A stretch of DNA of 64,000 nucleotides from Vulcanimicrobiota bacterium (GTDB lineage Bacteria > Vulcanimicrobiota > Vulcanimicrobiia > Vulcanimicrobiales > Vulcanimicrobiaceae): the NCBI GenBank assembly GCA_963714015.1, contig OY970223.1, positions 2,048,001 to 2,112,000 of the forward strand, given 5' to 3'. How positions within the stretch are numbered: the stretch's first letter is position 1; each line of letters starts with the position of its first letter. Below are positions 5,137 to 48,111 of the stretch, in pieces. A program made the translations under genes and the position numbers. Under the pieces are notes generated by a model, which saw nothing but the letters and a program-made list of their open reading frames with translations, had not been told where the DNA came from and ran no database searches.

Positions 5137-5511
5137 TTACTGCGCTTTAGCCATCGCCCGGTATGCGGCGATCTTTCCGTCCGGATCGAGCCGGAGCACG
5201 ACGTTCATCCAGCCCTTGCCGAAGTTTGCGCGGTACGTGTATTCGTTCTTCGCCTGATCGGTGCTCAGGTACGTTAGCCCGTGGTAGTCACCCAGCGAGT
5301 GCATCTTGTCCGAGAGAATCCCTAGCTCGGATCGAGTAACTTGCGACTTCAGCGTGTCGTCGAAGTTTTGCGTGGCTGCGTTCATGTCGTCGTTGTAAAC
5401 CGCTTTGGTGACCGAATCCGCTGAAGCTTGCGCCGAGCCTGCAGGGCTGCCGCCGCAAGCCGCGAGCGCGAGCACGAGGCCCGCACCCGCCAAGATTGCG
5501 TTACGGAGCAC
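5137..5511 (-). CDS. Lipoprotein, DUF3887-like
   Basis: Lipobox LAAC; small alpha/beta domain. Confidence 0.65.
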   Translation of the reverse strand: MLRNAILAGAGLVLALAACGGSPAGSAQASADSVTKAVYNDDMNAATQNFDDTLKSQVTRSELGILSDKMHSLGDYHGLTYLSTDQAKNEYTYRANFGKGWMNVVLRLDPDGKIAAYRAMAKAQ

Positions 5512-6008
5512 TAAATGCTGCCCCAGCCGTATGAGACCATCTCCGTGCTGCCATTATCCGCGACGCGCGTCGCAACGCGATGCTTTCGATCGGTCTTCGA
5601 GTGCGAGCTGTTCGAGCGCGGGTTCGGAATATATGCGACGGTGCGATCGCTCTTGCCGGCCATTGCCAGTTCGCTGCGCTGCTGAAGGATGACGCCGTGC
5701 TGGTAGGACACCTCGCGCTTGAGGTCGCCGACTTCGGCGACGGCGTTGTCATAAGCTTTCTGTTCGCTGCTGTAGGCTGCCCACGCGTCGTTGTTTTCCG
5801 ACTGGAGCTCGGCCTGGCGGCGCGCATCCTCGGCGTATTTCTCGTGAACCTTCCGGTTGTGCTGAATGATCAAATACGAAGCCGCGCCGATTCCCAGCAA
5901 AATGTTGCGCGTGCTGGCGCGGCCGTCGGCGAGCGCCGGAGCGGCGGGAACGAAGGTTGCCGTCATGGCTGCCAGCATCGTGCCGGCGATTGCTCGTTTG
6001 AAATTCAT
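5511..6008 (-). CDS. Secreted coiled-coil hypothetical protein
   Basis: AGGAGG RBS before ATG 6008; signal peptide MNFKRAIAG...PALA. Confidence 0.7.
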   Translation of the reverse strand: MNFKRAIAGTMLAAMTATFVPAAPALADGRASTRNILLGIGAASYLIIQHNRKVHEKYAEDARRQAELQSENNDAWAAYSSEQKAYDNAVAEVGDLKREVSYQHGVILQQRSELAMAGKSDRTVAYIPNPRSNSSHSKTDRKHRVATRVADNGSTEMVSYGWGSI

Positions 6009-6114
6009 AGCGTGGTCTTGCCCTCCTAAGTGGTGTAACGCAGGCGCCAAAGGCAATTGTTCCCCGCCTTCGAATCTCTCCAGCCCCTGCTCGCTTTGAC
6101 CGGAGGAATTTGCA

Positions 6115-20303: not shown

Positions 20304-21569
20304 CTACCGGAGACGGAGCTGTGCTTCGATGCCCTGCCAAACCGTCCGCGTCGTAGCACGGCTTACGTCGTTCTCCTTAGCGAACCGTCGAAAGTCGCCG
20401 ACTGCGGCAATCACGTCCTCAACGATGTGCTCGCAGCGGTGTGCCCGACGGAAAAGATAGTCGTGCGCGACCCGGAGCACGTCCGCGCGCCGAATGTCTT
20501 TTCCCAAACCGTTTACGGCTAGATAATGCTCGCCGCCCGGGCCGCGCGAATAGGTCAAGTCGTAGGCCGGCGCGAGCGTCCATCGGCCGGAGTCGTCCAT
20601 CAAGAACGCGTGCTGCTTGGGGTGATCGTCCCGGTTGTGAGCGAACACGTTGAACGTCATGCGACGGACGATCTGCTCAATCGCGCGCGCGTCCGCGGTG
20701 ACGCGCTGCGTTAACCGCAGCAGGGTTTGATAATCGATTACACCGGGCTGCGCCCACGGAAGGTCGAGCATTCCCGCTGCGGAGAGCACGTGCATGCGCC
20801 GGTTGCCCGCGGCGCGATCGAACCTTTTGGTCGCAAAGTATCCCGGACCGGTGTGTGAGGAGATCAGCCGCGTGTCGCTCATTATTATTCCTGCGGCGCG
20901 GGCCATCGCGGCATACGCGCACTCGAGCGGGCCGACATCGGCCAGGTCCGCGGCGCTACTGCGGAACTTGACCAGCAACGCCTCGTAACCGTCGGGGATA
21001 GACTCGGCGCCGGCGATCATGCGTCCATCGGTGTTCATGGCAACGAGCACTTTGGGGCGCGCGCCTCCGGACGAGCCGCCCAACGCTTGGAGCTGCGACA
21101 ACACCGCCGTGTCACTACCATCGATCACCGCGCCGAGCTGACTCTCGAGCGCATCCAGGTCCAGTTGCTGGTCTCGCTGCATCGAGTCGAGTGGCGATTC
21201 CGGTTCATAGGTGAGCGCACCCATGCCGCGAGAACCGATAATCGCCAGAACGTCCAACGGTGAGAGGTTCGCCGGGATCTTGCCTTGTTCGGCGATGCGC
21301 CGATCGATAAGAAGCCGCCCCCAAGCATCCGGCAGCGAATCCCCAAAGACGCCGTGCAGCCCGTCGAACGCGCGAGGATCCTTCGCCCGAATCGGCCCTG
21401 GTCGAGGGGCATCCAGCAGCGGGTTGATCCGTAGACCACTCGCAATGAAATCCTGCGCATATTCAAAAACAGCAAGACCGCGATCCATTGCAAGGCGTCC
21501 CACTGGAACGCGACGGCCGGGCGCAAAGGTTAGGAACGCGCGTAGCGCTTGGCCGGCCGGAACGATCAT
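20304..21569 (-). CDS. hipA: HipA family kinase toxin
   Basis: GVFGDSLPDAWGR, GGSSGGARPK, TKRFDR, NRDDHPKQ, LAPAYDL. Confidence 0.92.
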   Translation of the reverse strand: MIVPAGQALRAFLTFAPGRRVPVGRLAMDRGLAVFEYAQDFIASGLRINPLLDAPRPGPIRAKDPRAFDGLHGVFGDSLPDAWGRLLIDRRIAEQGKIPANLSPLDVLAIIGSRGMGALTYEPESPLDSMQRDQQLDLDALESQLGAVIDGSDTAVLSQLQALGGSSGGARPKVLVAMNTDGRMIAGAESIPDGYEALLVKFRSSAADLADVGPLECAYAAMARAAGIIMSDTRLISSHTGPGYFATKRFDRAAGNRRMHVLSAAGMLDLPWAQPGVIDYQTLLRLTQRVTADARAIEQIVRRMTFNVFAHNRDDHPKQHAFLMDDSGRWTLAPAYDLTYSRGPGGEHYLAVNGLGKDIRRADVLRVAHDYLFRRAHRCEHIVEDVIAAVGDFRRFAKENDVSRATTRTVWQGIEAQLRLR

Positions 21570-25054: not shown

Positions 25055-26482
25055 ATGGGATGTGATTCAGGTTATGCGAAGGAGCCAGAATTGATTGAAG
25101 GTAGTCAGGTTCGCCAGGACCGTCAGAAACGGGGGATTAGTCAAGCGCAGTTTGCCAAGTTTGCCGGCTTGGCGCAACACATGCTGTCTGCATTTGAGCT
25201 CGACAAGGCGGACCTTCCCGGGCCCATGAAGCGGCGCATTCAAGAAGCTTTCGAAAAGCTAGACCGATTCCATCGGAGCGAAGGGCAGCCTTTTTTTTCG
25301 AAAACGCGCTGGTCGGTCCAGTATGGGCGTAGACGTTATAACAATCGGCCCGGGACGATTGACTTAGAGACCGCCCGGGCCTTCGCTCGCGCTTGCCTCG
25401 TCGAAAGAGAAGACACTCCACGGCCTTTGCGGGGCATAAGTCTATTTTCAGGATGCGGCGGCATGAGTCTTGGCTTCCGGGACGCCGGTTTTGAGATACT
25501 AGGTTCAGTTGAACTTAATGAAGCCGCCAGGGCCATTTTCCATGAAAATTTTCCCGAGGCGCAGATGCTCGGGACCAATGTGCAGAGCATCAAGAAGGGC
25601 GACGTCGCCGAATGGAGACGACGTTTTCGCGATGTCGATGTGCTTTTCGGTGGGCCGCCCTGCCAGGGTTTTAGCCTAACTGGAAAGCGCGATCGATGGG
25701 ACACGCGCAACCAGCTCTATCGCTCGTTCGCACGCATCGCTGGCGTTCTGCAGCCTCGCATGGTCGTTTTGGAAAACGTCAGACTACTCACGTCGATGAA
25801 GTCGCCGGAAGGCGAGCCGGTACCAGCCTGCATTATGAGAGAATTTGAAAATCAGGGTTTCGTCATGCGCTACCGTGCGTTGAATGCACAAGATTTTGCC
25901 GTGCCCCAATTCAGAGAGCGCGTATTCTTCGTGGGAATCCGCCGGGGGTTGGGCTTCGAGCCTTCCTTTCCGTGCGCAACTCACGGCAAGAACGAGTCGG
26001 GAACGCTCTTTAAGGACTTGCTAACTCCCTTCAGAACGCTACGCGACGCAATTGCCGATCTGGAACCGCTCGAATCAGGAGAACAATCACGAGATCCTCT
26101 TCATTGGGCCGTGTCCCATCCGGATCACGTTATTGAAATGTTGATAGATGTTCCAGAGGGACACAGCGCACATGAGAATACCGATCCTAGAAAGAGGCCG
26201 AAGTCCGGCTACAATACCACGTACAAACGCCTGCAGTGGGACGAGCCCAGCTCAACAATAAGTACTACTTTCGGCATGATATCTGGATCTCGGAATGTGC
26301 ACCCGTCAAGCACGCGCTCGTTGACGATAAGGGAAGCGATGCGTTGTCAAACCTTTCCTGATCACTTTGTAATGTTCGGTCGGGTCGGTGACATCCGAAC
26401 TTCAATTGGCAACGCGGTCCCCCCTCGGTTGGCGTACTCAATAGCGATGCACCTTAGAAAGCTCTCGAATGGAAAGCCGTAA
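25055..26482 (+). CDS. DNA (cytosine-5) methyltransferase with N-terminal HTH
   Basis: FSGCGG (I), GGPPCQGFS (IV), ENV (VI), QFRERVF (VIII), IGNAVPP (X); N-terminal ISQAQFAKFAGL HTH. Confidence 0.95.
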   Translation: MGCDSGYAKEPELIEGSQVRQDRQKRGISQAQFAKFAGLAQHMLSAFELDKADLPGPMKRRIQEAFEKLDRFHRSEGQPFFSKTRWSVQYGRRRYNNRPGTIDLETARAFARACLVEREDTPRPLRGISLFSGCGGMSLGFRDAGFEILGSVELNEAARAIFHENFPEAQMLGTNVQSIKKGDVAEWRRRFRDVDVLFGGPPCQGFSLTGKRDRWDTRNQLYRSFARIAGVLQPRMVVLENVRLLTSMKSPEGEPVPACIMREFENQGFVMRYRALNAQDFAVPQFRERVFFVGIRRGLGFEPSFPCATHGKNESGTLFKDLLTPFRTLRDAIADLEPLESGEQSRDPLHWAVSHPDHVIEMLIDVPEGHSAHENTDPRKRPKSGYNTTYKRLQWDEPSSTISTTFGMISGSRNVHPSSTRSLTIREAMRCQTFPDHFVMFGRVGDIRTSIGNAVPPRLAYSIAMHLRKLSNGKP

Positions 26483-26488: not shown

Positions 26489-27505
26489 TTAGGGCGCAGG
26501 CGCGCGGATAACGGCCTCAGCAGTGGCGGGAATCTTATTAAAGTAACCAGCCTGCAAATTCATTTGCAGTTCGTTCTTGTTCTGTGTATTGCCTATGGGT
26601 TGGAACTGGATAAATCCGAACCGGGGATATTCATGGTGGTTTGGGTCTTCCTTAAATCGACCCTTCGTCACCCTGCGGAGCTTGGTTGTAAATCCGCAAT
26701 ACATCAGCGAGTACGTGACGAGGTCATCGACGTCGAGAAGGGACAGTTCCATGTGTTTCTCGTCTTCGCACGCTGTGCATTTATGCATGATGAATTGTGG
26801 TGGAAAGGGGTCATTAGCGTATGCTGGAGACCTGGTGAGGACAATCTTCGTGATTTCGCGCTGGTGCACGGTCAAGATAGTCGCCCACTCTTCGCGAACG
26901 GCTGGTTGCAGCTCTTCCCAGAACCACCGCTCATCATTAACCCGGCGGTCGGCCCGGCTGCGCATGTCTATGGGACGAAACCCGGGGTCTCCGCAATACA
27001 TCCGCAATCCGTCCTCTGCGGCCGTCGAGACGAAAATGCCGGCGATGCGGAGCGTTTCACAGAATTTCACCGCTGATCCGCAAAAGATCTGGGCGTTTGT
27101 AGGAGAAGGATTGTTGCATTGCTTTATCGACACGCCGTAGCGATTCGTACCCTCTCCATGTGTAAACTCTAGGAGCACATCCGTCTTTGAACCAGTAACC
27201 GTTCGGCCGCTATCGTCTGTTATCGTGTCGCCGTCCCCGGCAGTCTTTAGGCCGCCCAGCCATGCGGCGCGAATCCGCACTATGCCTGTCACGTGCCTTT
27301 TCTGGGCAATGAATCGAACAATCTCCTGCGCGGGGTGACCGGTAACAAGGTGGCCGGTGGTCGGTCGATTCCAGTGAATTTTCCTCAGGTCGAGTTCGTT
27401 AACTTGAGCAGCAAGGTTCTTCTCGAAGGCGTGGCCGCGTCTTCGGCCCTGCGTTCCCGCAAGGATCTGAAAAAGGTGTTGGTCGTCCTCTGGATTGAGT
27501 GCCAC
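26489..27505 (-). CDS. Type II restriction endonuclease, HinP1I/MspI-like
   Basis: GHAFEK...SKTDV...VSIKQ...Q; later R.F..E and FG.IQFQ..G...ELQM resemble HinP1I; convergent with the MTase. Confidence 0.7.
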   Translation of the reverse strand: MALNPEDDQHLFQILAGTQGRRRGHAFEKNLAAQVNELDLRKIHWNRPTTGHLVTGHPAQEIVRFIAQKRHVTGIVRIRAAWLGGLKTAGDGDTITDDSGRTVTGSKTDVLLEFTHGEGTNRYGVSIKQCNNPSPTNAQIFCGSAVKFCETLRIAGIFVSTAAEDGLRMYCGDPGFRPIDMRSRADRRVNDERWFWEELQPAVREEWATILTVHQREITKIVLTRSPAYANDPFPPQFIMHKCTACEDEKHMELSLLDVDDLVTYSLMYCGFTTKLRRVTKGRFKEDPNHHEYPRFGFIQFQPIGNTQNKNELQMNLQAGYFNKIPATAEAVIRAPAP

Positions 27506-28894: not shown

Positions 28895-31800
28895 CTAGCC
28901 CTTCGCTAATTCATGAAAATAGAGGACCGCGTTAAGTTGACGCATTTGCTTTACTGAGGAGCACTCGCTTAGCAAAAGGTCAGGGGAACCCACGATGACT
29001 GATAGGGCGCGCGCTCGCGAGATTGCGACGTTCAGTCGATTTAGGTTAAAAATAAAATCGAGTCCCCGTGCGGCGTCCTCCGCGCTGGAGGCCGCCGTGG
29101 AAAAGAAGACAACGAACGCCTCCTGGCCCTGAAACTTATCGACTGTGCCGACCTCGACCGCGGCCCAAGCGCCGCGCCGCCGAAGCTCTCGGGCGATGCA
29201 ATCAACTTGGGCATTGTACGGAGTGACGACGATAATATCTGCGGGCGTCATTTGACGCGTCATGTCGTAAGCGTCGGTAACTGACCCTTTCAAAAGAAGC
29301 TCCACCTCGTCCGCAATTCGCGTCGCCTCTTCGATCGAGCGGCTTCGATTGTTACGATGTGCTACCGGCAGAAATCTTAACCCTGCGCCGGACTGCCCGT
29401 CACTGGATACGCACTGCTTTTCCAGACCGGGCATCGACGCAAGACGGTCACGGTACATAATTGTCGATATGTATCTGCAAATGTCAGGGTGCATGCGGCG
29501 CGTCTGCTCGAGAAGGACGCCTCGCTCCGGCGTAACCGGGCCGTCCGCTTCAGCCAAAAGTCTGTCCAGAACTGACGCGCCGACGTTCATTGGGTGGCGT
29601 CCATGAGCAACTTGCGGTAATTGGGCGGGATCGCCCAGAAGAATGACCGACCTTGCGGACATTGTCGCCGCGATCACGGTCGGCAGCGCCACCTGGCCAG
29701 CCTCGTCGATCAGAAGAAAATCGACTTTTTGCCGCATCGAGGCGTGGGATAATGCGCTAGGCGTGCCGGCATAAAGATCGATGTCTAGAGTTCCCAGGTT
29801 GTCCGTAGTGGACGTTACGTTTCGGCCAAAGTACTCTGTACGAGATTCTCCCTCAGTACATTTCTTGTACCCGCGAAATCGAAACCCATTGTTGTCAAGC
29901 GCGGCTTTCTCAACCGCATCGAGTAGGTTGTGAATCGCCTGATGGCTATTTGCGGACACTGCGACTTTGTATCCCGCGTCTATCAAGGCAATCGCCAGAT
30001 GAGCGCCTTGGTAGGTCTTGCCGGAGCCCGGAGGCCCCTGAATAAAAAGATAGCTGTTGTCCAGGTCCCTTACGAGATCAACCAGTGCATTCGCCGTAAC
30101 AACGTCCGGCTGTACCTTAGTGCGTCGCGATCTAAACCGGGGAGCGGCGGCGCGGAGAAGGTCAAAGGCGCCGCGATAGATGGTGGGCGCCCCGTTGCAT
30201 GTGAGCAATTCAATCGCAAACGCAGTTAAAGCGTCGCGGATTGCTTTATTGGGATGATCATCGCGAACTATTATGGCGTCACCAACGACAGCGCGCTGAA
30301 ACTTCTTTCCTCGCTCAATCCTAACTTGATCCTGTTGTGTACCCACCGATGTGTCCAGAAGCGTGCCTATCTTGTCCTTGGTTGCCGCCGAGAAGCAGAA
30401 GGCGCCTGGCTTTGATTTGAAGAGTTGCGTTGGGAACTCGTAGGTTTCAATGATAGTCCCGGTAGGGCCGGCTTTGCCGATCTTGGGCTCTGCATGAGAA
30501 CAACGGACGTTGAGTAAGCACTCGGAATCGTCGATTAATTGTTCTGGATCGTCATGATAGGTTTCGGAGCGCTTGTGAAACTGCCAGAGTACCGGTTTCC
30601 GTTCTCGCCAGTGGTATTCGAGTAATTGGGGCGCAAGGAAGTAGGGTAATCGGGGATCATCGGATTTCGCATCTTCAGGGTCAAAGTCAGCGCCAATTCG
30701 GTCGCGGAGCGCCCGTTTTAGGTCGGCGTGGTCTCCACTGTAATCCTTCTCAATTTCAGGCGCAGGGCCAACGAAAAACGGAATGTCGATCTTAAACTGC
30801 TGTTCAGCTTCCTGCTTCAGGTCAAGCAGCCATCCACGTAACGCATAAGCAGATTTGCAATCGGCCTCGTTATATTGTTCAAGGTCTTCGAGAATCGTAT
30901 TATCCAGCTTTCCCAGGCGCTGGAGGGCAAGCCACTCCTCGAAACGCAGGATTGACTCGTCGCCCCCCTTCACGCTCGAGTGATCATTTCGCTTGCCGTA
31001 TAACTCCTCTACCGCTTTTAGCGAATAATTGGATTGTCCCAACATGACGCTCTGACGAACGACGGTATATAAGTCGACCAGAACGCGCTCGCGAAGTATG
31101 GTGTCTATCTCGCTTTCGCGAGTGGCATGTCGCTCCATTCACTCCTTGAGTGCGCGTTCTTCGTAGTTTGCATAGTGATAAATATGCATATCGGAGTGTT
31201 GGGCTCGTCGTCTCATGACATGATCGATCAAACCCTCAAACGCTGTTTTCTCGGCAGCTCGATGGCCGATCTTGCCGTTCAAAGTCCTGTCACATCCCCA
31301 GAACGCCTTAAATCCAGCGTCGCTCGAATACACACCAAGGAGGTACTCAAAGCCCTTGCCGGTCTCGAAGTACGGGTCGCCCTCGATGTCGAAAAAGACG
31401 TCGCCGGCGGAAGGCGCCGGCAGTAGGCTCAGGCCGCGCTTGCCGAAATGATCTGGCGCTATGGGCAGCAGCGCCTTTGTAAATGGGGGTTGCATTCCGG
31501 CGTCCGAGGCGCGCCGTTGCTGCAGTTGTAGCGCGGCCTGCCTCTGCAGCTTATCAAAGGTGGCTGAGGTCATCTTCGGTGGGCGCGCGGTAGAGGCGGA
31601 TTCGGCTAGTTTCTCAAGTGTGCTTATACCGACCGCGGTGAGGCGGGCGCGCTGAAGCGTCGTGCAGTTCGCCACTAGGCTCAGGTGATCGTCCCGAATG
31701 CGCCGTTCTGAACACTGTTGGTCGAATTCGCACAGGCTGCAGTGCTTGACAGGGTCAGGATACGTACTGTCGGTGTCGGTTTGTAGCCGTTCCAAGAACC

Positions 31801-32384
31801 GAGCCTTGACCGAGCGATAGTACGCCGCGTAGTCGGTTACGCGATATGGTGTGGGCATTCCGTTTCCAAGAATGACCCACGCCAGGCGGGGTGAGCACCC
31901 CTGCAATTGCGCAATCGAGCTCACTATAAAAACACAACTGCAATAAAAAGTACGGCTTTGTCTCGCTCGCCAGTTTCGTGTCGAGGACCTCGTAGCTATG
32001 TGTCCAGTTTCGGCCTTCTGGCCCGTCCTCTACGCGCTTTAGAAAGTCGGCGTTGCCCACCCAATCGCCGTACATCAGGGCCGCCTGGTAAATGTATTCC
32101 TTCCCTGCCTCCATTGCGGCCTTCGTTTCAGACAGCCGACGGAGCAGCGGCCAAGAGCCATCAATGCAGTACACGTCATGGCTTGACTGAAGATCCGTCA
32201 AGTACGCCTGTTCGTGCTCGCTTCCGAGCCGGCGCAATATTTGTGACTGCCCTTCTTCGGGTTTGGCCTTACCCCCAGGTCCTTCTGGCAAATGAAGTAA
32301 GTCGAGCGTGGTCAAATGGGGACATAGCAGAAAGTTGTTTAGATCGGTCGCCGAGTATACTGTGCGTCCTTCCAAAATCTGCAT
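28895..32384 (-). CDS. TM0106-family RecB-like nuclease fused to RNase H-like and DNA2/NAM7-type SF1 helicase domains (frameshift about 31920, in-frame TGA 31139-31141)
   Basis: YSATDL, GNADFL...EVLDTKLA...QLCFY, FFDIEGDP, YSLKAVE, QGPPGSGKT, IDEAGQ, GDPAQL, GTVDKFQGQE, NRLNVAISRA. Confidence 0.88.
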
Positions 32385-36898: not shown

Positions 36899-37649
36899 AT
36901 GATCGGAAAGAAACAGCCCCCCTCCGGCACGTTCGACTGGGATCGTCGCGACTATTTACGGGATAATCAGTGCTGGACAAGTGGCGACATCCTTGCCGAG
37001 GATCGCGTGCTTGCAGCATGGGGTAAGTACCGCATCGTGTACGGTCCATTCGACGTACCGCCCACGCCGAAAGCGAGGATCATTCTTTTAGGGCTGACGC
37101 CCGGCTTCGCGCAGTTAAAACTGGCAAATGAGGTGGCTCGCGATGCGACGGCGACAGGCACGGTTGACTGGTCGGACATCGGCAGCAGAATAAGAGAGCG
37201 GGCGGCCTTCGCTGGGCCGATGCGAGTAAATTTGGTTGCCATGTTGGATAAGCTCGATGTTCATCGAGAGCTAGGCCTGAATACATGCGACGAGCTTTTT
37301 TTGCCTGACGTGCAGATTGCCAGGACGACCTCGGCGCTGCGATATCCCGTCTTCATAAATGGGGACTCCAACTACCACGGTGATCGCGCCATCACTACGG
37401 CTCGGCCCTTCAAAGAGATGCTCGATCGAATCCTCGCTCCTCAGACTTGCCGCAATGCCGGATGAGATGATCGTGCCGTTTGGCCCCTGCGTGGAGTCGA
37501 CCTTGGAGTACCTTCGGGCGAGCGGGCACATCAGCGAACAGCGCGTGCTGCGTGGATTTCCGCACCCTTCCCGAGCAAACGGCCATCGCGCAAAGACGTT
37601 CGAGCGCAATTTCGCCCGTATGCGAGAGGTCGTCGCGTCATGGCGCTAG
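36899..37649 (+). CDS. Uracil-DNA glycosylase superfamily protein (indel about 37440)
   Basis: ARIILLGLTPG, AFAGPMR.NL, SALRYPVF, IVPFG, FPHPSRAN. Confidence 0.7.
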
Positions 37650-38088
37650 CGGCGCCTATCGCACGGGGAGCGTCGGAAAAGGATGGAGATTCACTTCTCG
37701 CCGACCTTATGCCGTACCCATGCCATGACCGTCAGTCCTGGCCGTATGACGGCATTTGCGCATATTCGACCCGAGCAATATACGAAGCGGCGATGCGTCC
37801 CAGCGGATTGCGGTCCTACGCGACAAGGTTGCGACGCGCCAATGCAGACTTGTTGTATGCAGCGGCAAAGCGACTGGACAATTTTCGAGCAGACTCTTCC
37901 CGTCGGTGTTTTTGCCGAATCCGTCCGCCCTTCAAGGTTGCGAGTCAGGATGAAGAAGAATGGTGCTTTCGCCGCATTTTAGCGGGCGTTACTTTAACAC
38001 GGAGCAGCAACTGAACGCTTTCGCGCGAGACGGCCTTAAGCGAAGTCAGTACGTAAGTTCTCAAAAGCCGAACCAGAGGGCGGCCGAA

Positions 38089-38853
38089 ATGGCAAACACG
38101 AACTATTATAAGACCCACGTCGAACCGTACGTTCGAGCCGAGTTGGAACGCCGGCACGGCGTCCGATTCGAGTCCAAAATATTAAGGCTCACGACGGGAG
38201 GAACGCACGAGTTCGACGCCGTTGCATTGGATGGCTCCATAGTGGCCAGCATTAAGTCGCTTTCTGGAAAGACCGCATCAGGAAAGCGACCGGCGGCGAA
38301 ATATTCGACCTGTCTCGCTGAACTGTACTTTCTCTCGCTCGTGGAATCACCGCGCCGCATCCTTGTCCTCACCACGCCGGACTGGCACACGATGTTTACG
38401 AAATACATCGAAAACCGCCTAGCCCCTGGGCTTGAAATAGAACTCATTCATCTTCCGTCGGAGATCCAACAAGAAGTCGACCGCGTGAAGGGGTTAGCCA
38501 GTAATGAGGTCTCCCTTTCATCCGTTGTCGCAGTTGCTGAAGCGATTCCGAAACCGAGGCCTCCAAGACTGTTGAAATCAGCGCGCGTCGTATCTGCCGG
38601 CCCGGCGAACGGCTGTCGCGATGAGATACTGAAGGCTGCCGCCCACCTTGGTTCGTTGGGGCAAACAGATTTCACGCCGGATGAGATAATCCGCACTCTA
38701 CGCGACCGCGGCACAAGGTACGCGGAGTCTACCATCCGCACGCACGTCGTTTCCGTCATGTGCAAAAACGCGCCCCAAAACCATTTGACTGCGTACGCGG
38801 ATCTCGAGCGGGTTGGCCACGGACGCTATAGGCTGCTTGGACACGTCGAGTAG
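38089..38853 (+). CDS. PD-(D/E)xK-like nuclease with C-terminal winged-helix domain
   Basis: E...HEFDAV...VASIK; C-terminal CRDEIL...FTPDEII...ESTIRTHV...ERVGHGRYRL. Confidence 0.6.
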   Translation: MANTNYYKTHVEPYVRAELERRHGVRFESKILRLTTGGTHEFDAVALDGSIVASIKSLSGKTASGKRPAAKYSTCLAELYFLSLVESPRRILVLTTPDWHTMFTKYIENRLAPGLEIELIHLPSEIQQEVDRVKGLASNEVSLSSVVAVAEAIPKPRPPRLLKSARVVSAGPANGCRDEILKAAAHLGSLGQTDFTPDEIIRTLRDRGTRYAESTIRTHVVSVMCKNAPQNHLTAYADLERVGHGRYRLLGHVE

Positions 38854-39028
38854 GCTAACATCTGCGACCTAAGTCGCGGCCCGTGTGCTCTCTTCATATA
38901 CACGCGGTTGCCGGCGTTCGTACCGCCCGCTGCTCTCTCGAAAAGTTAACAAACCGTCCCAGGCTGCTCACCCCGGCCGGAGCGAATAAGCGCCGCAACA
39001 AAATCACCATTGCATCAACGGAGTGGGC

Positions 39029-40867
39029 ATGGCAATCACGGCACCGCCGGCGTCTTTAGACGACGCCGTTCTTTCGCATTATCGTCTCGTCGCGCCGGTC
39101 ATGGAGGCCAATTTCGGGAATATCCCGATCGTCTGGACGACGTACTCAAGACGCGATCCACACGCCGTGGCCACGTGGCACCAGCAGTGCTTCGGCCATT
39201 ACTCGCACCTGAGCGCCGAGCATTTGCAACACCTCGTCAGCATCGGGGCGCAGGAGTTCTTCTCATGGTTTCCGATAGCGGAAGATCCCGAGCGATGCCG
39301 CTTTCTGCGGTTCTTGCTCGAAGCGCCGAATGTGCCTAAATCAATGCTCGTCGAGGCCGCGCACGCGCTGCGTCAGGAATTGCTAAGCGACGGTCGAGAG
39401 TCACTTCCGCTGCTTGCGTCCGGCGACGGTATTACGCTGTGGGTTCCTGTTGCCGATGGGCCGGACTACACACAAGCGCGCACGTATTGCCATTTGATCG
39501 CCGCGCGCCTCATCGCAAAGCATCCCAACCTGGTTTCGCTAGCGCCGAATACGCATGTCGACGGGTGCGTGCACCTGCACGTTTCCTCGAACGCGGTGGG
39601 CCGCTGCAGCATCATGCCGTATAGCATCCATCACCAAGGGCGCCACGTTGCCATGCCGCTCGAATGGGACGAAGTCTCCGAGCAAAACCTGCATACTCCA
39701 TCGATTGAGAACTTTGCAGCTCGCTTCGCCGAGCGCGGCGATCTCTTCGGTGCACAGGTCGCCGCCATAAAAGCATTGCCGCTGCCGGCGGAACCGAAGG
39801 AATCGTCAATAATGGCGGCCGGCGCCGGCTCCTCTCGTAACGCGAAAGGTGATGACATTCGTGCAGTTATCGCCGTGCTCTCTGATGGAGTTCCTAGGAC
39901 AATTCAGGAGCTCCAAAAAGAGATCGCCGCGCGCAAACTCATTAAGGCTCCGAGCCTCAACAGTCTGGCCGCGGCGCTAATCTCGTTCATTGAGCGGCTT
40001 GAGAGCAAGGGCCGCAAGCCGCCGATCATTCAGGACTTCGATAAACGCTATCGCCTGAATCAACCGCCCGACAATTGGCCGCTCCAGCCATGGACTGAGC
40101 CGACCCTGTCCGACGAAATGCAGAAGGTCGTCGATCGGTTGCGCGCGACGTCTAAGGGCGACCAGCCCACAGCCTTCGAGCAGGCGGTTTGCGACGCGCT
40201 GGCCGCGCTTAATTTCTCGGCCGTACATGTTGGCGGTAAGAAAGCGCCGGACGGATACATTGATGCTCCCCTCGGCACACTCGGTTACCGCGTAATGATT
40301 GAGTGCAAGTCTGGGGACGCTGACCATCCGAACATCTGGGAGGCGGCGAAGTTTAAGGACCAGTATGGCGCTCAATACTGCATGCTGGTCGCACCCTTTG
40401 TCGGGGACGAACGCTTCATTCGCGAGGAAAGCCAGACGCATGGGGTGAGCACTTGGAGTCTCGGCGATCTCATAACGGCGCTGACGTATGAGTTCACGCC
40501 GCTCGAGCTCGAGGCTTGCTTTGCTCCCGGTGTGGCAGCCTATGACGTTCTCACCGATCTGAAGTGGTCGCGCCGGCATGGGCAGGTTAAAGATCTAAAA
40601 ATTATGGCACAGATTATTCAATCCTCCGGCTGGGTGACGCAGCGTGCCGCGCTGGAAGCGGGAAGTTCCAAGGATGCCCCGCTGCTAACAGAAGATGCGG
40701 CTATGCTGCTCGTTGATCAATATCTCGCGGCGCAAAATTGCAAAGCGTCGTGCACCCGCGAACAGGTACGCCTGGCGTTCGAATATCTGACCAATCCGCT
40801 CGTCGGCGTCGCAGTTTGGACGGATGCGACGAAGACGGCGATCGTGGTCGTTTCGCCGCCGCAATAG
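39029..40867 (+). CDS. Fusion of degenerate LigD polymerase (AEP) domain, winged HTH and restriction-endonuclease-like domain
   Basis: N-terminus follows LigD PolDom (GAQEFFSW, HPNLVS, SNAVGRCSIMPYS, VAMPLEWDEV); C-terminus FEQAVCDAL...PDG...IECKS. Confidence 0.75.
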   Translation: MAITAPPASLDDAVLSHYRLVAPVMEANFGNIPIVWTTYSRRDPHAVATWHQQCFGHYSHLSAEHLQHLVSIGAQEFFSWFPIAEDPERCRFLRFLLEAPNVPKSMLVEAAHALRQELLSDGRESLPLLASGDGITLWVPVADGPDYTQARTYCHLIAARLIAKHPNLVSLAPNTHVDGCVHLHVSSNAVGRCSIMPYSIHHQGRHVAMPLEWDEVSEQNLHTPSIENFAARFAERGDLFGAQVAAIKALPLPAEPKESSIMAAGAGSSRNAKGDDIRAVIAVLSDGVPRTIQELQKEIAARKLIKAPSLNSLAAALISFIERLESKGRKPPIIQDFDKRYRLNQPPDNWPLQPWTEPTLSDEMQKVVDRLRATSKGDQPTAFEQAVCDALAALNFSAVHVGGKKAPDGYIDAPLGTLGYRVMIECKSGDADHPNIWEAAKFKDQYGAQYCMLVAPFVGDERFIREESQTHGVSTWSLGDLITALTYEFTPLELEACFAPGVAAYDVLTDLKWSRRHGQVKDLKIMAQIIQSSGWVTQRAALEAGSSKDAPLLTEDAAMLLVDQYLAAQNCKASCTREQVRLAFEYLTNPLVGVAVWTDATKTAIVVVSPPQ

Positions 40868-40974: not shown

Positions 40975-41122
40975 GTGCCGAAGAAACGCGACGTGCGGCG
41001 AATGCTCCTGGCTGACGATTGGGAACACCAAGCCCGGGAAGGTCACGCTTTCGGGGAAGGATAGTCTTGAGTTACCGGACGGCACTTGGAAGAATATTCG
41101 GCGTCAGGCAGGTTGGAAATGA
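40975..41122 (+). pseudogene. hicA: HicA toxin with internal deletion
   Basis: PKKRDVRRMLLADDW joined out of frame to TKPGKVTLSG...GTWKNIRRQAGWK; GSH segment missing. Confidence 0.7.
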
Positions 41123-41331
41123 GCAAATACGCGGTGGTTATTGAGAAGTCTAGTAACGGATACGGAGCCTATGTTCCCGACCTTCCGGGTTGCGTCGCCG
41201 TTGCTGAAACCGCGGATGAGGTAGAGGATCTTATTAGGCAGAGCATTGCGCTACATTTGGCCGCCCTACGCCAAGACGGCGATCCCGTTCCGGAGCCCAC
41301 GACGCGTGTTCGCGAATTGGAAGTCGCGTAG
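41119..41331 (+). CDS. hicB: HicB antitoxin
   Basis: YAVVIEK...YGAYVPDLPGCVA...DGDPVPEP. Confidence 0.9.
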   Translation: MSKYAVVIEKSSNGYGAYVPDLPGCVAVAETADEVEDLIRQSIALHLAALRQDGDPVPEPTTRVRELEVA

Positions 41332-41534
41332 CGAAGAAGCGTCGAAAAATCGTTGCACTGCGAGGGATCTCTGCCGACGCGTCCTCGCGCAATTGAATTC
41401 ATGCGTCCGGTGCGCGGCTCGATGGCCGCTAATGTTTGCCGTCCGACGCGATCTAGGCCATTCTTACCAAAGGAGCGCCTCGGAACGCATCTAACCGTAA
41501 TCTAAAGCTTCCTGTTTTGAAGGGGTGGGCATTT

Positions 41535-43580
41535 GTGTTTGCACCGCGTCGTACGATTGTACTCTGCGTTACTTTGGGCGCGCTGGCCCTCCTAGCCGCA
41601 GGATGCTCCCACGCGGTCAGCAGCGCGCTTCCGCCCCGAACTAATTCGGTCAAGCGAGCCTCGATCGTCTATCGAGAAACGCACGCCGTCCCTCCGCGGC
41701 TCGGACAAGGCTCGCACGTAAGCGCGAACGCATCGTATCGCGGCGACGTTACGACGCTGCCGGCGAACTTGGCATTTCCGGCTGGTGTAGCCTATAACCC
41801 CGCAAGCGGTGCGCTTTACTTCATCACCGGTTCCGGCGAATATCAGCTTGTCGAGCTTGCGAAAAACGGCGCCGAAATCGTGCTCGCCTCGCTGCCGTTC
41901 CAGCCGACCGCCCTCGTCTACGACGCTGCAACGAAACTCGTCTACGTAACCTCGCCGTACAATGAATCCGGCTATCAGTACCCGTGCGTCGTCGCCGTCG
42001 ACTCAAGCGGCAATATGACCGTTCTTGCCGGCGGGACCGCAAACGGCCATACGGACGGGCAAGGTTCGGCAGCGACATTTGCGTCGTTAAATGCGATAAC
42101 GATCGACGCGAAAGATGGTGCCCTTTACGTTGCCGACAGCGATCGCATACGTCGTATAACTACTGCGGGCGCCGTTACGACATTTACACCTGCGAACTCC
42201 ATTTCGGCCAACGGCCTGGCATGGAGCAAGGTCGACGGAAACTTCTATGCGACGGATGCGCCGGAGGACGAAATCAAATCAATAACCCCGAACGCGGCTA
42301 TCAAGACGATTGCCGGCCAATGCCTCGGGGGTGGTCCCTCCTCATGTGCCGAGCTTCAGCGCGACGGGGCTGGGAAGAAGGCGCTATTCGCCGGGCCCGA
42401 AGGAATTGCCGTCTCGCCGACTACGGGCGATCTCTATGTCGCCGATTTCGGAAACAACTCGATTCGCGAAGTGACGCCGGCGGGCCTTACGTCGACACTG
42501 GCCGGCAACGGGCTGGCGGCAAACGTCGACGGCGCCGGGCTGAACGCCGAATTCGATGCTCCCTGGGCGTTGACGATGTCCGGCAATACGCTGTACGTCG
42601 CGGACTCCGACTTGAATCTGCAAAAGTCCGCCGTTCGCGAGGTAACGACGACAGGCAGCACGCCGCCTCCGCCCCCAACGCCGATTACGTATTTCGATAC
42701 GGTCACGCCCGGCGCGGAGCCGTTTGCCATCGATTCGCGCTCGACGAACGCGACCACAATGTGGTACAGCGAGTTGACGCGCCGCGTCGCGAGTCTGACT
42801 ACCGCGGGAAAGAGCACCGAATACACGACGACGTCGCAGAAACCGTCTGATACGCCGCAGGATATCGTCCTGGGCAGCGATGGCACTCCATGGTTCTATG
42901 ATGGCGCACAAGGCTTGATTCAGCATCTTGAGGCCAATGGGAGCATTCAAGGATTCAGCCTGCAATTCGAGATTTGCTGCGGTGCGCCGTTATGGCCCGA
43001 TAGCCTGACCTACGGCCCCGACGGAAACGTGTGGCTGATCGACGGCAGCGATATCGATTCCGTTACACCCTCCGGCACGGTTACCCCGGTCAAAGGGCCG
43101 TCGAGCGACTCGAGCACGATCGCTTTCGGGGGAGACGGTACCATATGGCTGTCCGGCAGCGGCTCCGAACTTACGCAAATCGATCGCACCGGCAAGGTCT
43201 TGGCAACGTATAACGTTCCGGTCAATTTCATTACGGAGGCGCCCGACGGGAACATCTTGTTCACGCAAAATGATGCCGTCGGGGAAATCGATATCAAGAC
43301 GCGGCTCGTTACCATCTACCCGATTTACGAGCAACTTCCGGGGTGCCAACCGTCCCAGTGTTCGCGCTACATCGGCACCATCACGACCGGTTCCGACGGC
43401 GCCTGGTGGTTTACGGAAGGCATCGGCTACATCGGCCGTCTCGATCCCAACGGCGGCTTCACGGAATACCAAATTTTGGCGGCTCACGCAAAGCCGTTCG
43501 ATCTCGTCTCGGGTCCGGACGGCAACCTGTGGTTCACGGATACCGGCGCGCAAAAAATCGGCAAGCTGGCGCTGCAGTAA
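41535..43580 (+). CDS. NHL-repeat plus Vgb-like double-propeller lipoprotein (copy A)
   Basis: Lipobox LAAGC; DGQGSAATF/LYVAD repeats; Pro-rich linker; GPDGNLWFT repeats. Confidence 0.88.
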   Translation: MFAPRRTIVLCVTLGALALLAAGCSHAVSSALPPRTNSVKRASIVYRETHAVPPRLGQGSHVSANASYRGDVTTLPANLAFPAGVAYNPASGALYFITGSGEYQLVELAKNGAEIVLASLPFQPTALVYDAATKLVYVTSPYNESGYQYPCVVAVDSSGNMTVLAGGTANGHTDGQGSAATFASLNAITIDAKDGALYVADSDRIRRITTAGAVTTFTPANSISANGLAWSKVDGNFYATDAPEDEIKSITPNAAIKTIAGQCLGGGPSSCAELQRDGAGKKALFAGPEGIAVSPTTGDLYVADFGNNSIREVTPAGLTSTLAGNGLAANVDGAGLNAEFDAPWALTMSGNTLYVADSDLNLQKSAVREVTTTGSTPPPPPTPITYFDTVTPGAEPFAIDSRSTNATTMWYSELTRRVASLTTAGKSTEYTTTSQKPSDTPQDIVLGSDGTPWFYDGAQGLIQHLEANGSIQGFSLQFEICCGAPLWPDSLTYGPDGNVWLIDGSDIDSVTPSGTVTPVKGPSSDSSTIAFGGDGTIWLSGSGSELTQIDRTGKVLATYNVPVNFITEAPDGNILFTQNDAVGEIDIKTRLVTIYPIYEQLPGCQPSQCSRYIGTITTGSDGAWWFTEGIGYIGRLDPNGGFTEYQILAAHAKPFDLVSGPDGNLWFTDTGAQKIGKLALQ

Positions 43581-43594
43581 GGGAGAAGAAGCTC

Positions 43595-45683
43595 GTGCTA
43601 AGATCGAGTAGCAAGAAGTTTGCGGCAGCGCTGAGTTGCATACTGATTATCGCTCTACAGGGCTGCGCGCAAAAAGTGGGAAGCGGCGTGGTGCCGGCAA
43701 TTAAAGCTCACCAACCGGCGCACGCATCCCTTGCCGTCGTCCGTCACACCGTGCACCTGGACGCGCAGCGGAACGCACTCGGCGGCACGCACGTTGGAGG
43801 GAGCGGATATCGCGGAAACGTGGTTACGCTGCCGCCATCGCTCATAAGCCCCACGGACGTAACCTACGACCCGGACGATGGAAACGTCTATGTCCTTTCA
43901 GAGATCTCCGGGCAAAACGCCTATCAGATTCTAAAGATAACACCGGCCGGCGTGGCGACCACGTTCGCGAAGCTTGGACCACTGGTATACGGCATTGTTT
44001 ACGACCATGCCACGCAGTCGTTTTACGCGACGAGTCCGTACCTGCCGCCCAACGATTATGCGGGCGTCTACGCTATCACGAGTGCGGGTAACGTGTCGAT
44101 TCTTGCGGGAGGCTCGTCGTGGGGCCAGCAAGACGGTCAAGGACAAGCGGCAAGTTTTTTGAACCCGACCGGAATCACACTCGATGGTGCTAATGGGACG
44201 CTGTACTTGGTCGACAGCGATCGAATCCGCGCGGTAACTCCGGGAGGTGCGGTCACGACGTTGACGCAGCCCGGTTCGATCGGCGGTGAAAGCAGTGATG
44301 TCCGAGCCGGCATTGTCTGGAATCCCACAGACGGCAACTTCTACGTGGCCGCCCCGGCTACCGACAGCGTTCAGCGCGTGGCCTCCACAGGAGCGGTGAG
44401 CGTATTGGCCGGGCAGTGCGTGGCCAATCAGAACCAACAGTGCGCGCCTCTGGAGCGTAATGGGCCCGGCACGAAAGCTTTGTTCGCGACGCCGACGGGC
44501 ATCACCGTAACCGCGGCCGGCAACCTTTACGTCGCCGACAGCCAGAACAATGCGATTCGCGAAGTGACGACCGCCGGCATGGTCAGCACATTGGCCGGGA
44601 GCGGAAGAACGGGATCGGTCGACGGCGCCGGCTTGAACGCCGAGTTTAGTGCGCCGACCTCTCTTACAACCGTCGGCGGAAAACTCTACGAACTCGACTC
44701 GTCTTGGAACGGTGGAGCGCTGCGTACGGTCACGACTGCCGGTTCCGCGCCGCCGCCGCCTTCTTCCTTAATCACAATGTACGAAACGGCAACGCCGGGT
44801 GCGCAGCCGTTTGCCATCGATTGGCGGGCTCCGGCGAAAACGCTGTGGTACACCGAGTTGACCGGGCGCATCGCAGCAATCACTCCCGCGGGGCAGAGCA
44901 CGGAATATCAGATAATCCCACATCCGCGGTTTTCTACGCCGACCGATATTGCACTTGACGGCAAGGGCACGCCGTGGTTTTACGATCCGCCCGACGGCGT
45001 TTTGTCGCACCGTTCGGGCGGGGGAAGGGTCACGTCGTACAAGCTCAACTATCAGTACAATCAAGGGCCGCCCTCATTACCCGATTCAGTTGCCTACGGC
45101 CCGGGCAACACGATGTGGCTGACCGAGTTCCAGCTTGCCGATTCCGTATCGTCGGAGGGCGTGCTGAGCAGACTTCACGATAAACGGCTTGTTCGGCGAC
45201 GGAAATCCAATTGCGTTTTCCGGCGACGGTTCGTTGTGGATGTACAACAATGCGTACCCCACTTCACAGATCGTCAAGATGGACACGCACGGTAACGTCC
45301 TCGACACATACGACTTCGCAGTGAAGTTCATTACCGAGGCGCCCGACGGGAACATTCTGTTCACGCAGGCCGATGCAATCGGTAAAATCAACGTCGCCAC
45401 CGGCGTTATCGATTACTATCAGATCTATCAGCCGGTTCCGGGGTGTCAGAGCTACTGCTCGCGCAACATCGGCACAATCACGGTCGGCTCGGACGGCGCA
45501 TATTGGTTCACGGAAAATGCCATCGGCTACATCGGACGCATCGATCCGAACGCGGGTTTTAGCGAATACCCAATCCTCGCGGCGCACGTCAACCCGTTCG
45601 ACATCGTCCCCGGGCCGGACGGCAATGTCTGGTTCACCGATACCGGCGCACAGAAAATCGGAAAGATCAAAGTGAAACTGTAG
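43595..45683 (+). CDS. NHL-repeat plus Vgb-like double-propeller lipoprotein (copy B; indel about 45170-45190)
   Basis: Lipobox LQGC; colinear paralog of copy A. Confidence 0.85.
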
Positions 45684-46972: not shown

Positions 46973-47140
46973 TCAATGATAGTCAACAATGGTCACGTTG
47001 TAAGCGTCGCCATCCCTCCAAACGAAGCCAATGCGATACGTTTGGTTGATCCGAATCGAGTGTTGTCCAGCTCGATCCCCGGAAAGCTTCTCGAGCTGTA
47101 GGCCAGGGCCTCGCAAAGCGTGCAGCGATGTAATTTCATT
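46973..47140 (-). pseudogene. higB: 5'-truncated HigB toxin (absent from the ORF track)
   Basis: NEITSLHALRGPGLQLEKLSGDRAGQHSIRINQTYRIGFVWRDGDAYNVTIVDYH*; begins at the WYL stop codon. Confidence 0.85.
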
Positions 47141-48111
47141 CAGAGAACAGCGTGTTCGTCGTAAAGTCCGACTAAGGCATCCGCGATGCCTCGGGCGCAG
47201 TCAACGGCCTCCGCCGGCGCGACGACCTTGGCATCGATGCCGAAGCCGAGCGCCCAACGCACGACCTCGCCGACGTCGCCGACGATGAATGTCATCGTTG
47301 CCGATCCGTCCGCGTGCGTGTCGATCTCTTGAGCGCGCTGCCATTGGCGTGAGGTTGCCGAAGGGGCGAGCGCGGGCGAAATCCATACGGAAACGCGATG
47401 CTTCTGCGTACCCTGAATAAAACCGAGCACGTCGTCGTTCTGATAGTGCGCAGGGATCGGCTGCGGCGAGAACGAGCCCGCCCGTTTGACGGGCGGTGCG
47501 ATGCTATCGAGCGCGTAGTACTTCCAGTTTCGGGCGGCAGGATCCCGGGCCAGCAGATAGTAGCGGCCGGAGCGTACAATCGCGCACCCCGGCTCGACGC
47601 GCCGCTCTTTGCCCGAGTAGCGAAACGTCACGCGGGCGTTGTTGGCCCAGGCGGACTGCAGTTCGTCAAAGATCTGCGCCACGCGGCTGCCTTGGAGCAG
47701 CGCCGGTTGTAGAAAGCGCAAGAAGCGGCGATCGTCGCGCGACTCTTCGCCTTCAATAGATTGGAGCTGCGCCTGCACCGGCGGTCCCAGGGCACGGCCG
47801 ATGTCCCGAATCAGCGAGCGCAGCGCGCGGCTGCTCTTGTCCAGCGCGGTCGGCCGGCGATCGAAGTCCAAGAGGCGGACGACATCGTGTTCGCTCTTTT
47901 CGGCGATGCGGAAGCCGGCGCGCTCGCCGATCGCGCGCAATTCCTGCAGATCGCGTAAGATGGTGCGCTCCGATGCCTCGTACTCCTCGCACATGCGGCT
48001 CAGACGCACGAACTTGTTGCGCACCAGTTCGAGCAGAATACGGATCTTGCGTTCCGTCGCACCGCTGGGCTCCCCGGACTGACGGCCTTTGCCGCTAATC
48101 GCTTTGGGCAT
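47140..48111 (-). CDS. HTH-WYL-WCX transcriptional regulator (PafBC/BrxR-like architecture)
   Basis: SERTILRDLQEL HTH; RRVEP...GRYYL...YALD WYL; VRWALGFG..AKVVAP WCX. Confidence 0.9.
   Translation of the reverse strand: MPKAISGKGRQSGEPSGATERKIRILLELVRNKFVRLSRMCEEYEASERTILRDLQELRAIGERAGFRIAEKSEHDVVRLLDFDRRPTALDKSSRALRSLIRDIGRALGPPVQAQLQSIEGEESRDDRRFLRFLQPALLQGSRVAQIFDELQSAWANNARVTFRYSGKERRVEPGCAIVRSGRYYLLARDPAARNWKYYALDSIAPPVKRAGSFSPQPIPAHYQNDDVLGFIQGTQKHRVSVWISPALAPSATSRQWQRAQEIDTHADGSATMTFIVGDVGEVVRWALGFGIDAKVVAPAEAVDCARGIADALVGLYDEHAVL

Follow-up and report, generated by a model that had tools for sequence, protein, structure and literature searches.

The open reading frame (ORF) at positions 39023 to 40867 of the window, as we call the whole 64,000-nucleotide stretch of a Vulcanimicrobiota bacterium analysed here, encodes a protein of four domains: a polymerase domain (PolDom) of the kind found in the repair ligase LigD, a winged helix, a PD-(D/E)xK nuclease and a second winged helix. 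The components are of known kinds; their combination is new. The PolDom has the complete fold of the archaeo-eukaryotic primases (AEP), lacks the catalytic residues of a polymerase and is nonetheless maintained by purifying selection, while the nuclease motifs are conserved throughout the family. Tentatively, and with slightly less than even confidence, we read the protein as a solitary nuclease of the restriction type that acts in genome conflict and in which the exapted PolDom would be a regulatory or targeting module.

The gene and its product

The preliminary description of this locus, made from the sequence alone, reported an unbroken 614-codon frame and quoted a series of motifs from its translation. 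The frame, a single gene of 1.8 kb, is indeed unbroken, and every motif was found where it had been placed: RFLLEAP at residues 96-102, LASGDGITLWVP at 131-142, VHLHVSSN at 183-190, PYS at 199-201, MPLEWDEV at 211-218, FE at 385-386, PDG at 409-411 and ECK at 427-429. Residues are numbered throughout from the GTG codon at 39023. The true start is probably the ATG at 39029, the same as in the preliminary description, because a Shine-Dalgarno-like GGAG motif lies 5 nt upstream and because the 612-aa product expected from this codon has the length of a database protein, P0002, to which it is 100% identical. A scan for sigma-70-like promoters between 38600 and 41300 yielded no site, and a terminator scan yielded two terminator-like sites, a number not above the level of shuffled sequence. 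A look-up of sequencing runs listed no RNA run with matching words and one soil DNA run matching 0.05 of the words.

The N-terminal domain is a PolDom without polymerase residues

The window protein matched Pfam family PF21686 (LigD_Prim-Pol) with an E value of 6.5e-19, scoring 68.9 bits against a gathering cut-off of 27.4 bits; its match to the NCBIfam equivalog TIGR02778 (ligD_pol), at 54.1 bits, fell below the cut-off of 214.7 bits. Searching the Protein Data Bank (PDB) with phmmer retrieved the PolDoms 2iru and 5dmu at E values of about 2e-7. A profile of the family aligned with 5dmu over positions 11-240 (E 8.6e-24), the solved PolDoms overall being aligned over positions 9-241. An AlphaFold2 model of the whole protein, computed from 18 family sequences, had a mean predicted local distance difference test (pLDDT) score of 81.4. 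In Foldseek, the first 250 residues of this model matched the LigD PolDom of Mycobacterium tuberculosis (Mtb), 2r9l_A, with an E value of 4e-14 and a template modelling (TM) score of 0.73 over 269 columns; the next matches were PolDoms from Methanocella and Pseudomonas and the polymerase Prim-PolC (5dmu, 2fao, 5op0). The N-terminal domain is a complete AEP/PolDom fold, and the assignment is far above chance.

The catalytic positions were examined in an alignment of the window protein and 17 relatives sharing 35-51% identity, to which all family-column counts out of 18 refer. The two motif I aspartates (Mtb D137 and D139) fall on L98 and E100 when the protein is aligned with 5dmu or with the canonical PolDom of the same genome. 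The register at this motif varies, the family profile setting E100 at the first aspartate and the 2fao alignment giving R96 and L98, and at most one carboxylate is left whichever register is used. L98 is found in 17/18 members (one has Ile) and E100 in 16/18. The third catalytic aspartate (Mtb D227) corresponds to H186 in every alignment, in a column made up of 16 His, one Ala and one Trp; the nearby H184 is invariant (18/18). The histidine of motif II (SGxxGxH) is replaced by T138 in one register and by L139 in another shifted by one residue, and column 138 contains Thr, Ala, Ser or Glu in all 18 members. The structural motifs, in contrast to the catalytic ones, are kept in the family: hsW, the Asn of motif III, PYS and P..WdE, with PYS and WDE invariant. 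The polymerase triad and the motif II histidine are thus missing from 18/18 aligned members, and replacements of this kind should leave the domain unable to polymerise. A PolDom with replaced catalytic residues is what the preliminary description had proposed, and the comparison it suggested, by Foldseek and with the Mtb and Pseudomonas PolDoms, bore this out: the AEP fold was found and no full metal-binding triad is retained.

We also considered whether E100, H184 and H186 might make up a universal metal site. The idea was rejected, since a distant member, P0058, has Trp and Gly at the positions of the two histidines. P0058 (924 aa) gives a fuller match to the PolDom profile (positions 5-254) and carries an additional C-terminal region of about 250 aa that has no Pfam match.

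Mean pairwise identity is 0.43 in the PolDom, 0.44 in winged helix 1, 0.57 in the nuclease and 0.52 in the C-terminal part, and drops to 0.17 in the linker. Ratios of non-synonymous to synonymous substitution (dN/dS, or omega) were calculated by the Nei-Gojobori method for 15 independent pairs of loci, drawn from 51 family ORFs of at least 560 aa at the fetched loci; the values are rough because dS exceeds 1 in many pairs. Omega ranged from 0.08 to 0.37 in the PolDom (median 0.20; 14/15 pairs computable), from 0.06 to 0.37 in the nuclease (median 0.10, the lowest of the domains) and from 0.16 to 0.90 in the linker (median 0.31; 13 pairs computable). The dead PolDom is maintained by purifying selection.

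The nuclease core

A separate model of residues 274-614 was built on 15 sequences, including forms that have no PolDom, and reached a pLDDT of 90.2 and a predicted TM (pTM) score of 0.79. The top Foldseek match of this model was FokI (E 2.3e-7), followed by HindIII and BspD6I. VIA-align, which is independent of Foldseek, returned the same proteins: FokI residues 305-579 (Z 15.1), HindIII (Z 14.0, with a root-mean-square deviation of 3.0 over 152 residues), N.BspD6I (Z 12.4) and the small subunit of R.BspD6I (Z 11.7). With Pfam, the window protein scored 16.5 bits against Mrr_cat (PF04471), short of the cut-off of 21 (E 0.0093), while the homologs P0045, P0048 and P0043 passed it (24.7, 22.5 and 21.8 bits, respectively). 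Pfam also gave a weak match (E 0.034) to NA-iREase1, a family described as an inactive restriction endonuclease. The catalytic set is nearly invariant across the 18 members: E386, E427, C428 and K429 are present in 18/18 and D410 in 17/18. Predicted structure and conserved catalytic columns together identify the domain as a PD-(D/E)xK fold of the FokI/HindIII/Mrr type, in agreement with the winged helix followed by an intact restriction-type nuclease of the preliminary description.

VIA-align matched winged helix 1 with winged-helix domains of ScpB, Z-alpha and MarR-type proteins (Z 8-9), and within the FokI match the same segment aligns with subdomain D3. The matches of winged helix 2 were the cullin WHB domain and winged helices of ORC and RNA polymerase III (Z 8-9.3). 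Assignment of winged helix 1 to HARE-HTH or Mrr_N was rejected, there being no Pfam match at E <=1 and only an Atlas lead of 0.84. The nearest Atlas clusters, which serve as leads only, carry Mrr_cat, FokI_cleav_dom, AlwI or HARE-HTH.

DNA-end-binding and Ku-docking residues

According to an excerpt of PMC8656161, the pocket for the 5'-phosphate in the Mtb domain is made up of Asn13, Lys16 and Lys26. Excerpted text of PMC4797286 describes K16 as essential for 5'-phosphate binding and R53 as strictly conserved in polymerases of non-homologous end joining (NHEJ), with R53 acting as a DNA wedge and F63/F64 opening the template. We mapped these residues through 2iru, whose chain numbering equals the native numbering +3, an offset checked on D137/D139, R53, P55 and F63/F64. 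In the sequence alignment of the N-terminal helix, K26 falls on D13, in a column that has neither Lys nor Arg in any of the 18 rows. The counterparts of N13 and K16 would lie no further in than residue 3, a stretch that is disordered in the model and precedes the first residue of several members. R53 corresponds to T40, in a column where Thr predominates and neither Arg nor Lys occurs. An aromatic residue is kept at the F64 position only (Trp, Tyr or Phe in 16/17 filled cells). A segment of 17-19 residues that follows F63/F64 in canonical PolDoms, and which we presume to be the Loop 1 region involved in synapsis, is absent from most members, the window protein included. From these alignments the domain appears to have lost both the canonical 5'-phosphate pocket and the DNA wedge. 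The preliminary description had taken it for a retained sensor of 5'-phosphate ends, a view left unsupported by the replacement of K26 by Asp and of R53 by Thr and the want of counterparts for N13 and K16.

The PolDom is also a Ku-docking domain of LigD, as stated in an excerpt of PMC13717202, where the authors term the Ku-contact interface of the Mtb protein species-specific. In the family, the columns aligned with the Mtb contact residues D162, V194 and R198 are variable; because the interface is species-specific by that account, the mapping is uninformative. The window genome encodes Ku, 1.27 Mb from the family gene, and a canonical PolDom. Ku is present in 22/25 sampled genomes of the host family, and in one genome, G279, which is 91% complete, a full-length family gene (E 5.7e-203) occurs without any match to Ku.

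A second PolDom of the window genome is split over two frames. At locus L086 a canonical LigD PolDom occupies two overlapping frames (516-1193 and 1033-1413, plus strand) beside Ku (1468-2322); its DxD, its SGxGxH and the third aspartate are all present, and an indel error in the single-contig assembly, rather than decay, is possible.

Distribution of the family and exchange of the N-terminal domain

A word-indexed search recovered 20 family proteins among 8000 scored candidates. An exhaustive search of 1.84 billion representatives gave 980 proteins at E <=1e-3, 265 at E <=1e-10 and 107, in as many clusters, at E <=1e-30. From a scan of one genome per species, which yielded 126 relatives, 80 loci were kept; nearly all belong to the Eremiobacterota (Vulcanimicrobiota, Baltobacteraceae), the loci outside the phylum being one in Dormibacterota, two in Acidiferrales, two in Limnocylindrales and one on a short contig labelled Burkholderia. 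At E <=1e-10, 340/401 sampled genomes of the phylum have a match, many of these being cross-matches to canonical PolDoms at E values of 1e-15 to 1e-30. At E <=1e-90, in approximate tallies made by eye and including 16 genomes flagged as unpublished, a match was found in about 117/297 genomes of the host family (about 32/80 inside one genus), in 4/5 and 4/30 genomes of two sister families and in 0/69 of the remaining genomes. In some genomes the strong matches number two or three, and an in-frame stop occurs in 9 among the 150 matches listed. The gene is patchily distributed within genera, as expected of an accessory gene of the Eremiobacterota, and is probably subject to frequent gain, loss and duplication.

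The window genome has a second copy (locus L003, 383-2202, minus strand, equivalent to about 3330151-3331341 of G000:C1), which is frameshifted between PDG and ECK into ORFs of 422 aa and 200 aa. On contig G182:C2, a short copy without a PolDom (3065-4141) stands in tandem with a full-length copy (4176-6095) that carries an in-frame TAA; the pair suggests local duplication and decay.

Many matches are short forms of this kind, confined to residues ~258-613 and with stop-to-stop frames of 357-391 aa; short proteins like these are also frequent among the representatives. Two other proteins, P0043 (696 aa) and P0075 (703 aa), have Peptidase_M4 and M4_C fused to the same core of winged helix, nuclease and winged helix, with the HExxH motif and the downstream Glu ligand intact. 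In a quick maximum-likelihood tree of the core of 47 proteins (29 PolDom forms, 14 short forms, 2 M4 fusions and 2 others), the short forms branch off amid PolDom forms, the PolDom label must have changed 5 times or more across the well-supported branches, and the two M4 fusions are placed apart from each other. Since the core occurs alone or joined to M4 peptidases, the PolDom is a swappable accessory and not an obligatory licence for the nuclease.

Genomic neighbourhood

The family gene of the window genome sits in a strain-specific defence island. Window positions 1-20 kb and 48-64 kb match two genomes of the same genus at 71-86% over kilobases, whereas the best match within 33-47 kb is 627 bases at 66%; the GC content drops from ~0.60-0.62 to 0.55-0.58 over 24-40 kb. 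The features of the island are listed with those of the gene in Table 1. A C5 cytosine methylase with an N-terminal helix-turn-helix (Pfam, 4.9e-57) is paired with a REase_II nuclease (PADLOC, 1.7e-69). It is the sole methylase of the window, lies 12.5 kb from the family gene and has this REase_II of its own. The protein encoded directly upstream of the family gene matches nothing in PADLOC or NCBIfam and is not recurrent beside the family at other loci. A tRNA scan of the window found none, so that there is no tRNA-linked integration site.

The preliminary description spoke of a region full of decayed genes. In favour of this, the Mokosh-like helicase has an in-frame TGA (31139-31141) inside its RNase H-like domain, which may reflect a pseudogene, read-through or an assembly error, and the two overlapping ORFs at 36899-37465 and 37359-37649 may be one frameshifted gene. 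Because the assembly is a single contig, some of the apparent breaks are possibly indel errors, and the claim stands in part.

Elsewhere, ORFs were called and clustered at the 80 loci and in the window, 1116 in all. No conserved operon partner emerged from these clusters: the most recurrent neighbour is a family of NHL/beta-propeller paralogs, at 17/81 loci, no other cluster occurs at more than 7 of the 81, and no DNA methylase is found among the recurrent clusters. In the window, large beta-propeller paralogs of the NHL/Vgb-lyase type (41517-45295, plus strand) adjoin the family gene; they occur also at L031, L033, L035, L055, L063, L064, L067 and L078, often as arrays, and may mark variable regions of Eremiobacterota genomes.

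The two nearest ORFs on each side were scanned with Pfam at 37 loci (148 of 152 ORFs). At 10/37 loci, by raw count, a toxin-antitoxin, defence or transposase gene lies within two genes; the 12 proteins concerned are HipA, Fic, AbiEi and AbiEii, PIN (twice), NTP_transf_2, a Cas9-like protein, IS1595, ISL3, DUF4160 and a Pycsar-type TIR protein. There is no DNA methylase among the 148 neighbours, and no ligase, phosphoesterase domain or Ku is fused or adjacent to the family gene in the window or found among these neighbours. The association with defence islands, posited in the preliminary description, therefore holds in the window genome and is modest elsewhere.

Table 1. Coordinates of the family gene, its domains and motifs, and other features of the window
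Feature	Position	Strand	Basis or remark
Whole ORF	39023..40867	+	614 codons from GTG, stop included; unbroken frame
GGAG, Shine-Dalgarno-like motif	39020..39023	+	5 nt before ATG 39029
LigD PolDom (AEP) fold, predicted polymerase-dead, residues ~9-250	39047..39772	+	Pfam, profile, Foldseek, omega
Motif I position, L98-L99-E100 replacing D-x-D	39314..39322	+	alignments, family columns
Motif II His position, T138 or L139	39434..39439	+	alignments; never His
H184-L185-H186	39572..39580	+	H186 at third catalytic Asp; H184 invariant
Disordered linker, residues 258-273	39794..39841	+	pLDDT <50; mean pairwise identity 0.17
Winged helix 1, residues ~274-348	39842..40066	+	VIA-align Z 8-9; model residues 1-75
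Predicted FokI/HindIII/BspD6I/Mrr-type PD-(D/E)xK endonuclease domain, residues ~361-519	40103..40579	+	VIA-align, Foldseek, Pfam
E386, acidic residue of first nuclease helix	40178..40180	+	invariant, 18/18
P409-D410-G411 nuclease motif	40247..40255	+	D410 17/18, G411 18/18
E427-C428-K429 nuclease motif	40301..40309	+	each 18/18
Winged helix 2, residues ~520-612	40580..40858	+	VIA-align Z 8-9.3; model residues 247-339
HipA-like kinase toxin	20304-21569	-	at or near island edge
Type II restriction-modification pair, methylase	25055-26479	+	convergent with REase_II
Type II restriction-modification pair, REase_II	26489-27505	-	convergent with methylase
Mokosh MkoA/MkoC-like SF1 helicase with RNase_H_2 domain	28895-31924	-	1009-codon frame
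Overlapping ORFs offset by one frame	36899-37465 and 37359-37649	+	no family match
297-aa protein directly upstream	37960-38853	+	C-terminal DUF7669, E 4.1e-10
HicB-like antitoxin	41086-41331	+	at or near island edge
WYL-WCX regulator	47140-48111	-	at or near island edge

Comparison with known systems

FokI, the Type IIS enzymes N.BspD6I/R.BspD6I and HindIII resemble the window protein in having a winged helix followed by a PD-(D/E)xK domain with the PD...ExK set kept. They differ from it in that the window protein has no adjacent methyltransferase at any surveyed locus (no DNA methylase among the 148 neighbours), in its additional N-terminal dead PolDom and in an identity of only 12-16%; a cognate methyltransferase beside the nuclease, by which Type II and IIS restriction-modification systems are recognised, was not found. 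FokI, moreover, has three N-terminal recognition subdomains, whereas the window protein has one winged helix before the nuclease and one after it. With the Mrr-type (Type IV) endonucleases, a class defined by cleavage that depends on modified bases, the protein shares the solitary gene and the winged helix ahead of an Mrr_cat-like domain; unlike them, it stays below the Mrr_cat cut-off, has no Mrr_N match and has the PolDom and the C-terminal winged helix in addition. LigD PolDom and Prim-PolC, the AEP polymerases of NHEJ and base excision repair, have the same fold over the whole domain, and the Pfam cut-off is passed; the window domain differs in having neither the Asp triad, the motif II His, the R53 wedge nor K26, in missing the N13/K16 segment and in being unlinked to a ligase, a phosphoesterase domain or Ku.

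For P0043 and P0075 a loose analogy, and no closer one, may be drawn with nucleases of the metallo-beta-lactamase (MBL) fold that operate with separate trypsin-like or caspase proteases. In the two family members the nuclease core carries what looks like an active protease; the difference is that an M4 metallopeptidase is fused to a PD-(D/E)xK nuclease, in place of a separate protease and an MBL-fold nuclease. By this analogy the fusions suggest that the nuclease core may accept alternative control modules.

The protein and its two upstream neighbours had no usable match in PADLOC-DB 2.0.0, and full-text literature searches, followed at the level of listings and abstracts, returned no description of a fusion between a PolDom and a nuclease. 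Within that scope the architecture matches no described defence system, and the preliminary description had not recognised it from any.

Discussion

We favour, at slightly less than even odds, the reading of the window protein as a solitary restriction-type nuclease of genome conflict. In the mechanism we propose, the winged helices would bind DNA and the FokI-like domain would cut it, probably once it has formed a dimer in the manner of FokI. The exapted PolDom would act as a non-catalytic control or targeting module that decides when or where the nuclease acts, perhaps through a protein or ligand bound in the remodelled cleft (R96, E100, H184, H186), and the gene would be an accessory anti-phage or anti-plasmid defence gene of the Eremiobacterota. 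A more specific form of this proposal, fairly unlikely in our estimation, is that the old polymerase cleft has been rebuilt as a sensor site that switches the nuclease on allosterically. Here R96, E100, the invariant H184, H186 and an aromatic residue at 195 would take the place of the residues that bind nucleoside triphosphate and metal, and the site might respond to a metal, to a signal derived from nucleotides or to a DNA end bound by Ku or Gam.

Several observations weigh against the reading of the protein as a solitary nuclease of genome conflict. At 27/37 loci, only metabolic or regulatory genes lie within two genes of the family member; because of these negative loci and the lack of a background rate, the defence-island signal outside the window genome is weak. 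Nearly all members of the family come from one phylum, whereas most defence genes spread widely, and there is no cognate methyltransferase to account for self-tolerance. The best PADLOC match (E 0.082, 10.3 bits) covers a 30-residue stretch of a CARF_PDDEXK model. The argument from selection suffers from the high dS values. As to the exchange of the N-terminal domain, some short metagenome proteins are possibly truncated gene calls, and the changes of the PolDom label come from the quick tree alone and not from a careful search.

Among the alternatives, the model of the preliminary description, in which the dead PolDom binds 5'-phosphate ends or nicks and thereby lets the nuclease act on invading DNA that is linear or nicked, would explain why the whole fold is kept under purifying selection. 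The aromatic residue at the F64 position, the invariant PYS and WDE and the location of the gene in an island are consistent with it as well. We nevertheless regard it as quite unlikely: the N13/K16/K26 pocket is not kept, R53 has become Thr, the segment after F63/F64 is missing from most members and the core nuclease recurs without any PolDom. If, instead, the dead domain had kept the docking of Ku attributed to the PolDom of LigD in the PMC13717202 excerpt, it would bring the nuclease to ends bound by Ku or by phage Gam, either as an end-processing factor of NHEJ or as a destroyer of linear foreign DNA. Conservation of a catalytically dead domain would be accounted for in this way, and the partner is at hand, given Ku and canonical PolDoms in the window genome and the frequency of Ku in the host family. 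Taken jointly, the two variants of this model seem rather unlikely to us. The Mtb contact residues lie on variable columns (with the proviso that the interface is species-specific according to the authors), G279 has the full-length gene and no Ku match, and the gene never adjoins Ku or ligase among the 148 neighbours. A patchy distribution, multiple copies and frequently broken ones fit a repair factor poorly, and M4 peptidases, too, are found on this core.

Those irregularities would be expected of a selfish mobile nuclease, homing-endonuclease-like or addictive, that spreads and decays in the Eremiobacterota while benefiting the host little or not at all. The gene stands singly in unrelated neighbourhoods and is restricted to one phylum; several copies per genome, tandem copies as in G182, frequent in-frame stops and frameshifts, and transposases beside some copies (IS1595, ISL3, rve) all agree with such an element. 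Strong purifying selection on all four domains in independent pairs does not, and in the window the gene is neither inserted within a host gene nor accompanied by a recombinase of its own; we consider this explanation unlikely. Finally, one of the two enzyme-derived domains being certainly dead, and the nuclease matching NA-iREase1 weakly, both could be mere scaffolds in a DNA binder that does not cleave, such as a regulator or a chromatin factor with two winged helices. The invariant or nearly invariant PD-(D/E)xK set of the 18 members and the lowest omega, that of the nuclease, make this very improbable. So does the D-to-E spacing of FokI, 17 residues, which is the same in the window protein.

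In this protein a domain of a repair enzyme has become a pseudo-enzyme module that selection retains on a restriction-type nuclease. The family comprises more than 100 sequence clusters and is found in many soil bacteria of a phylum that has no cultured model organisms. Taken together, the core that stands alone and the cores with other N-terminal domains make a natural series of variants, which could show how a FokI-like cleavage domain is regulated. If the PolDom was one of several swappable sensors (PolDom, M4 peptidase or none) on a common FokI-like effector, and the cleft had indeed become a sensor site, it would be the first case of a DNA-repair polymerase giving rise to an immune sensor domain. 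More generally, if the PolDom controls or aims the nuclease, it would represent a new kind of sensor or adaptor in prokaryotic immunity and a possible link between the NHEJ machinery and defence.

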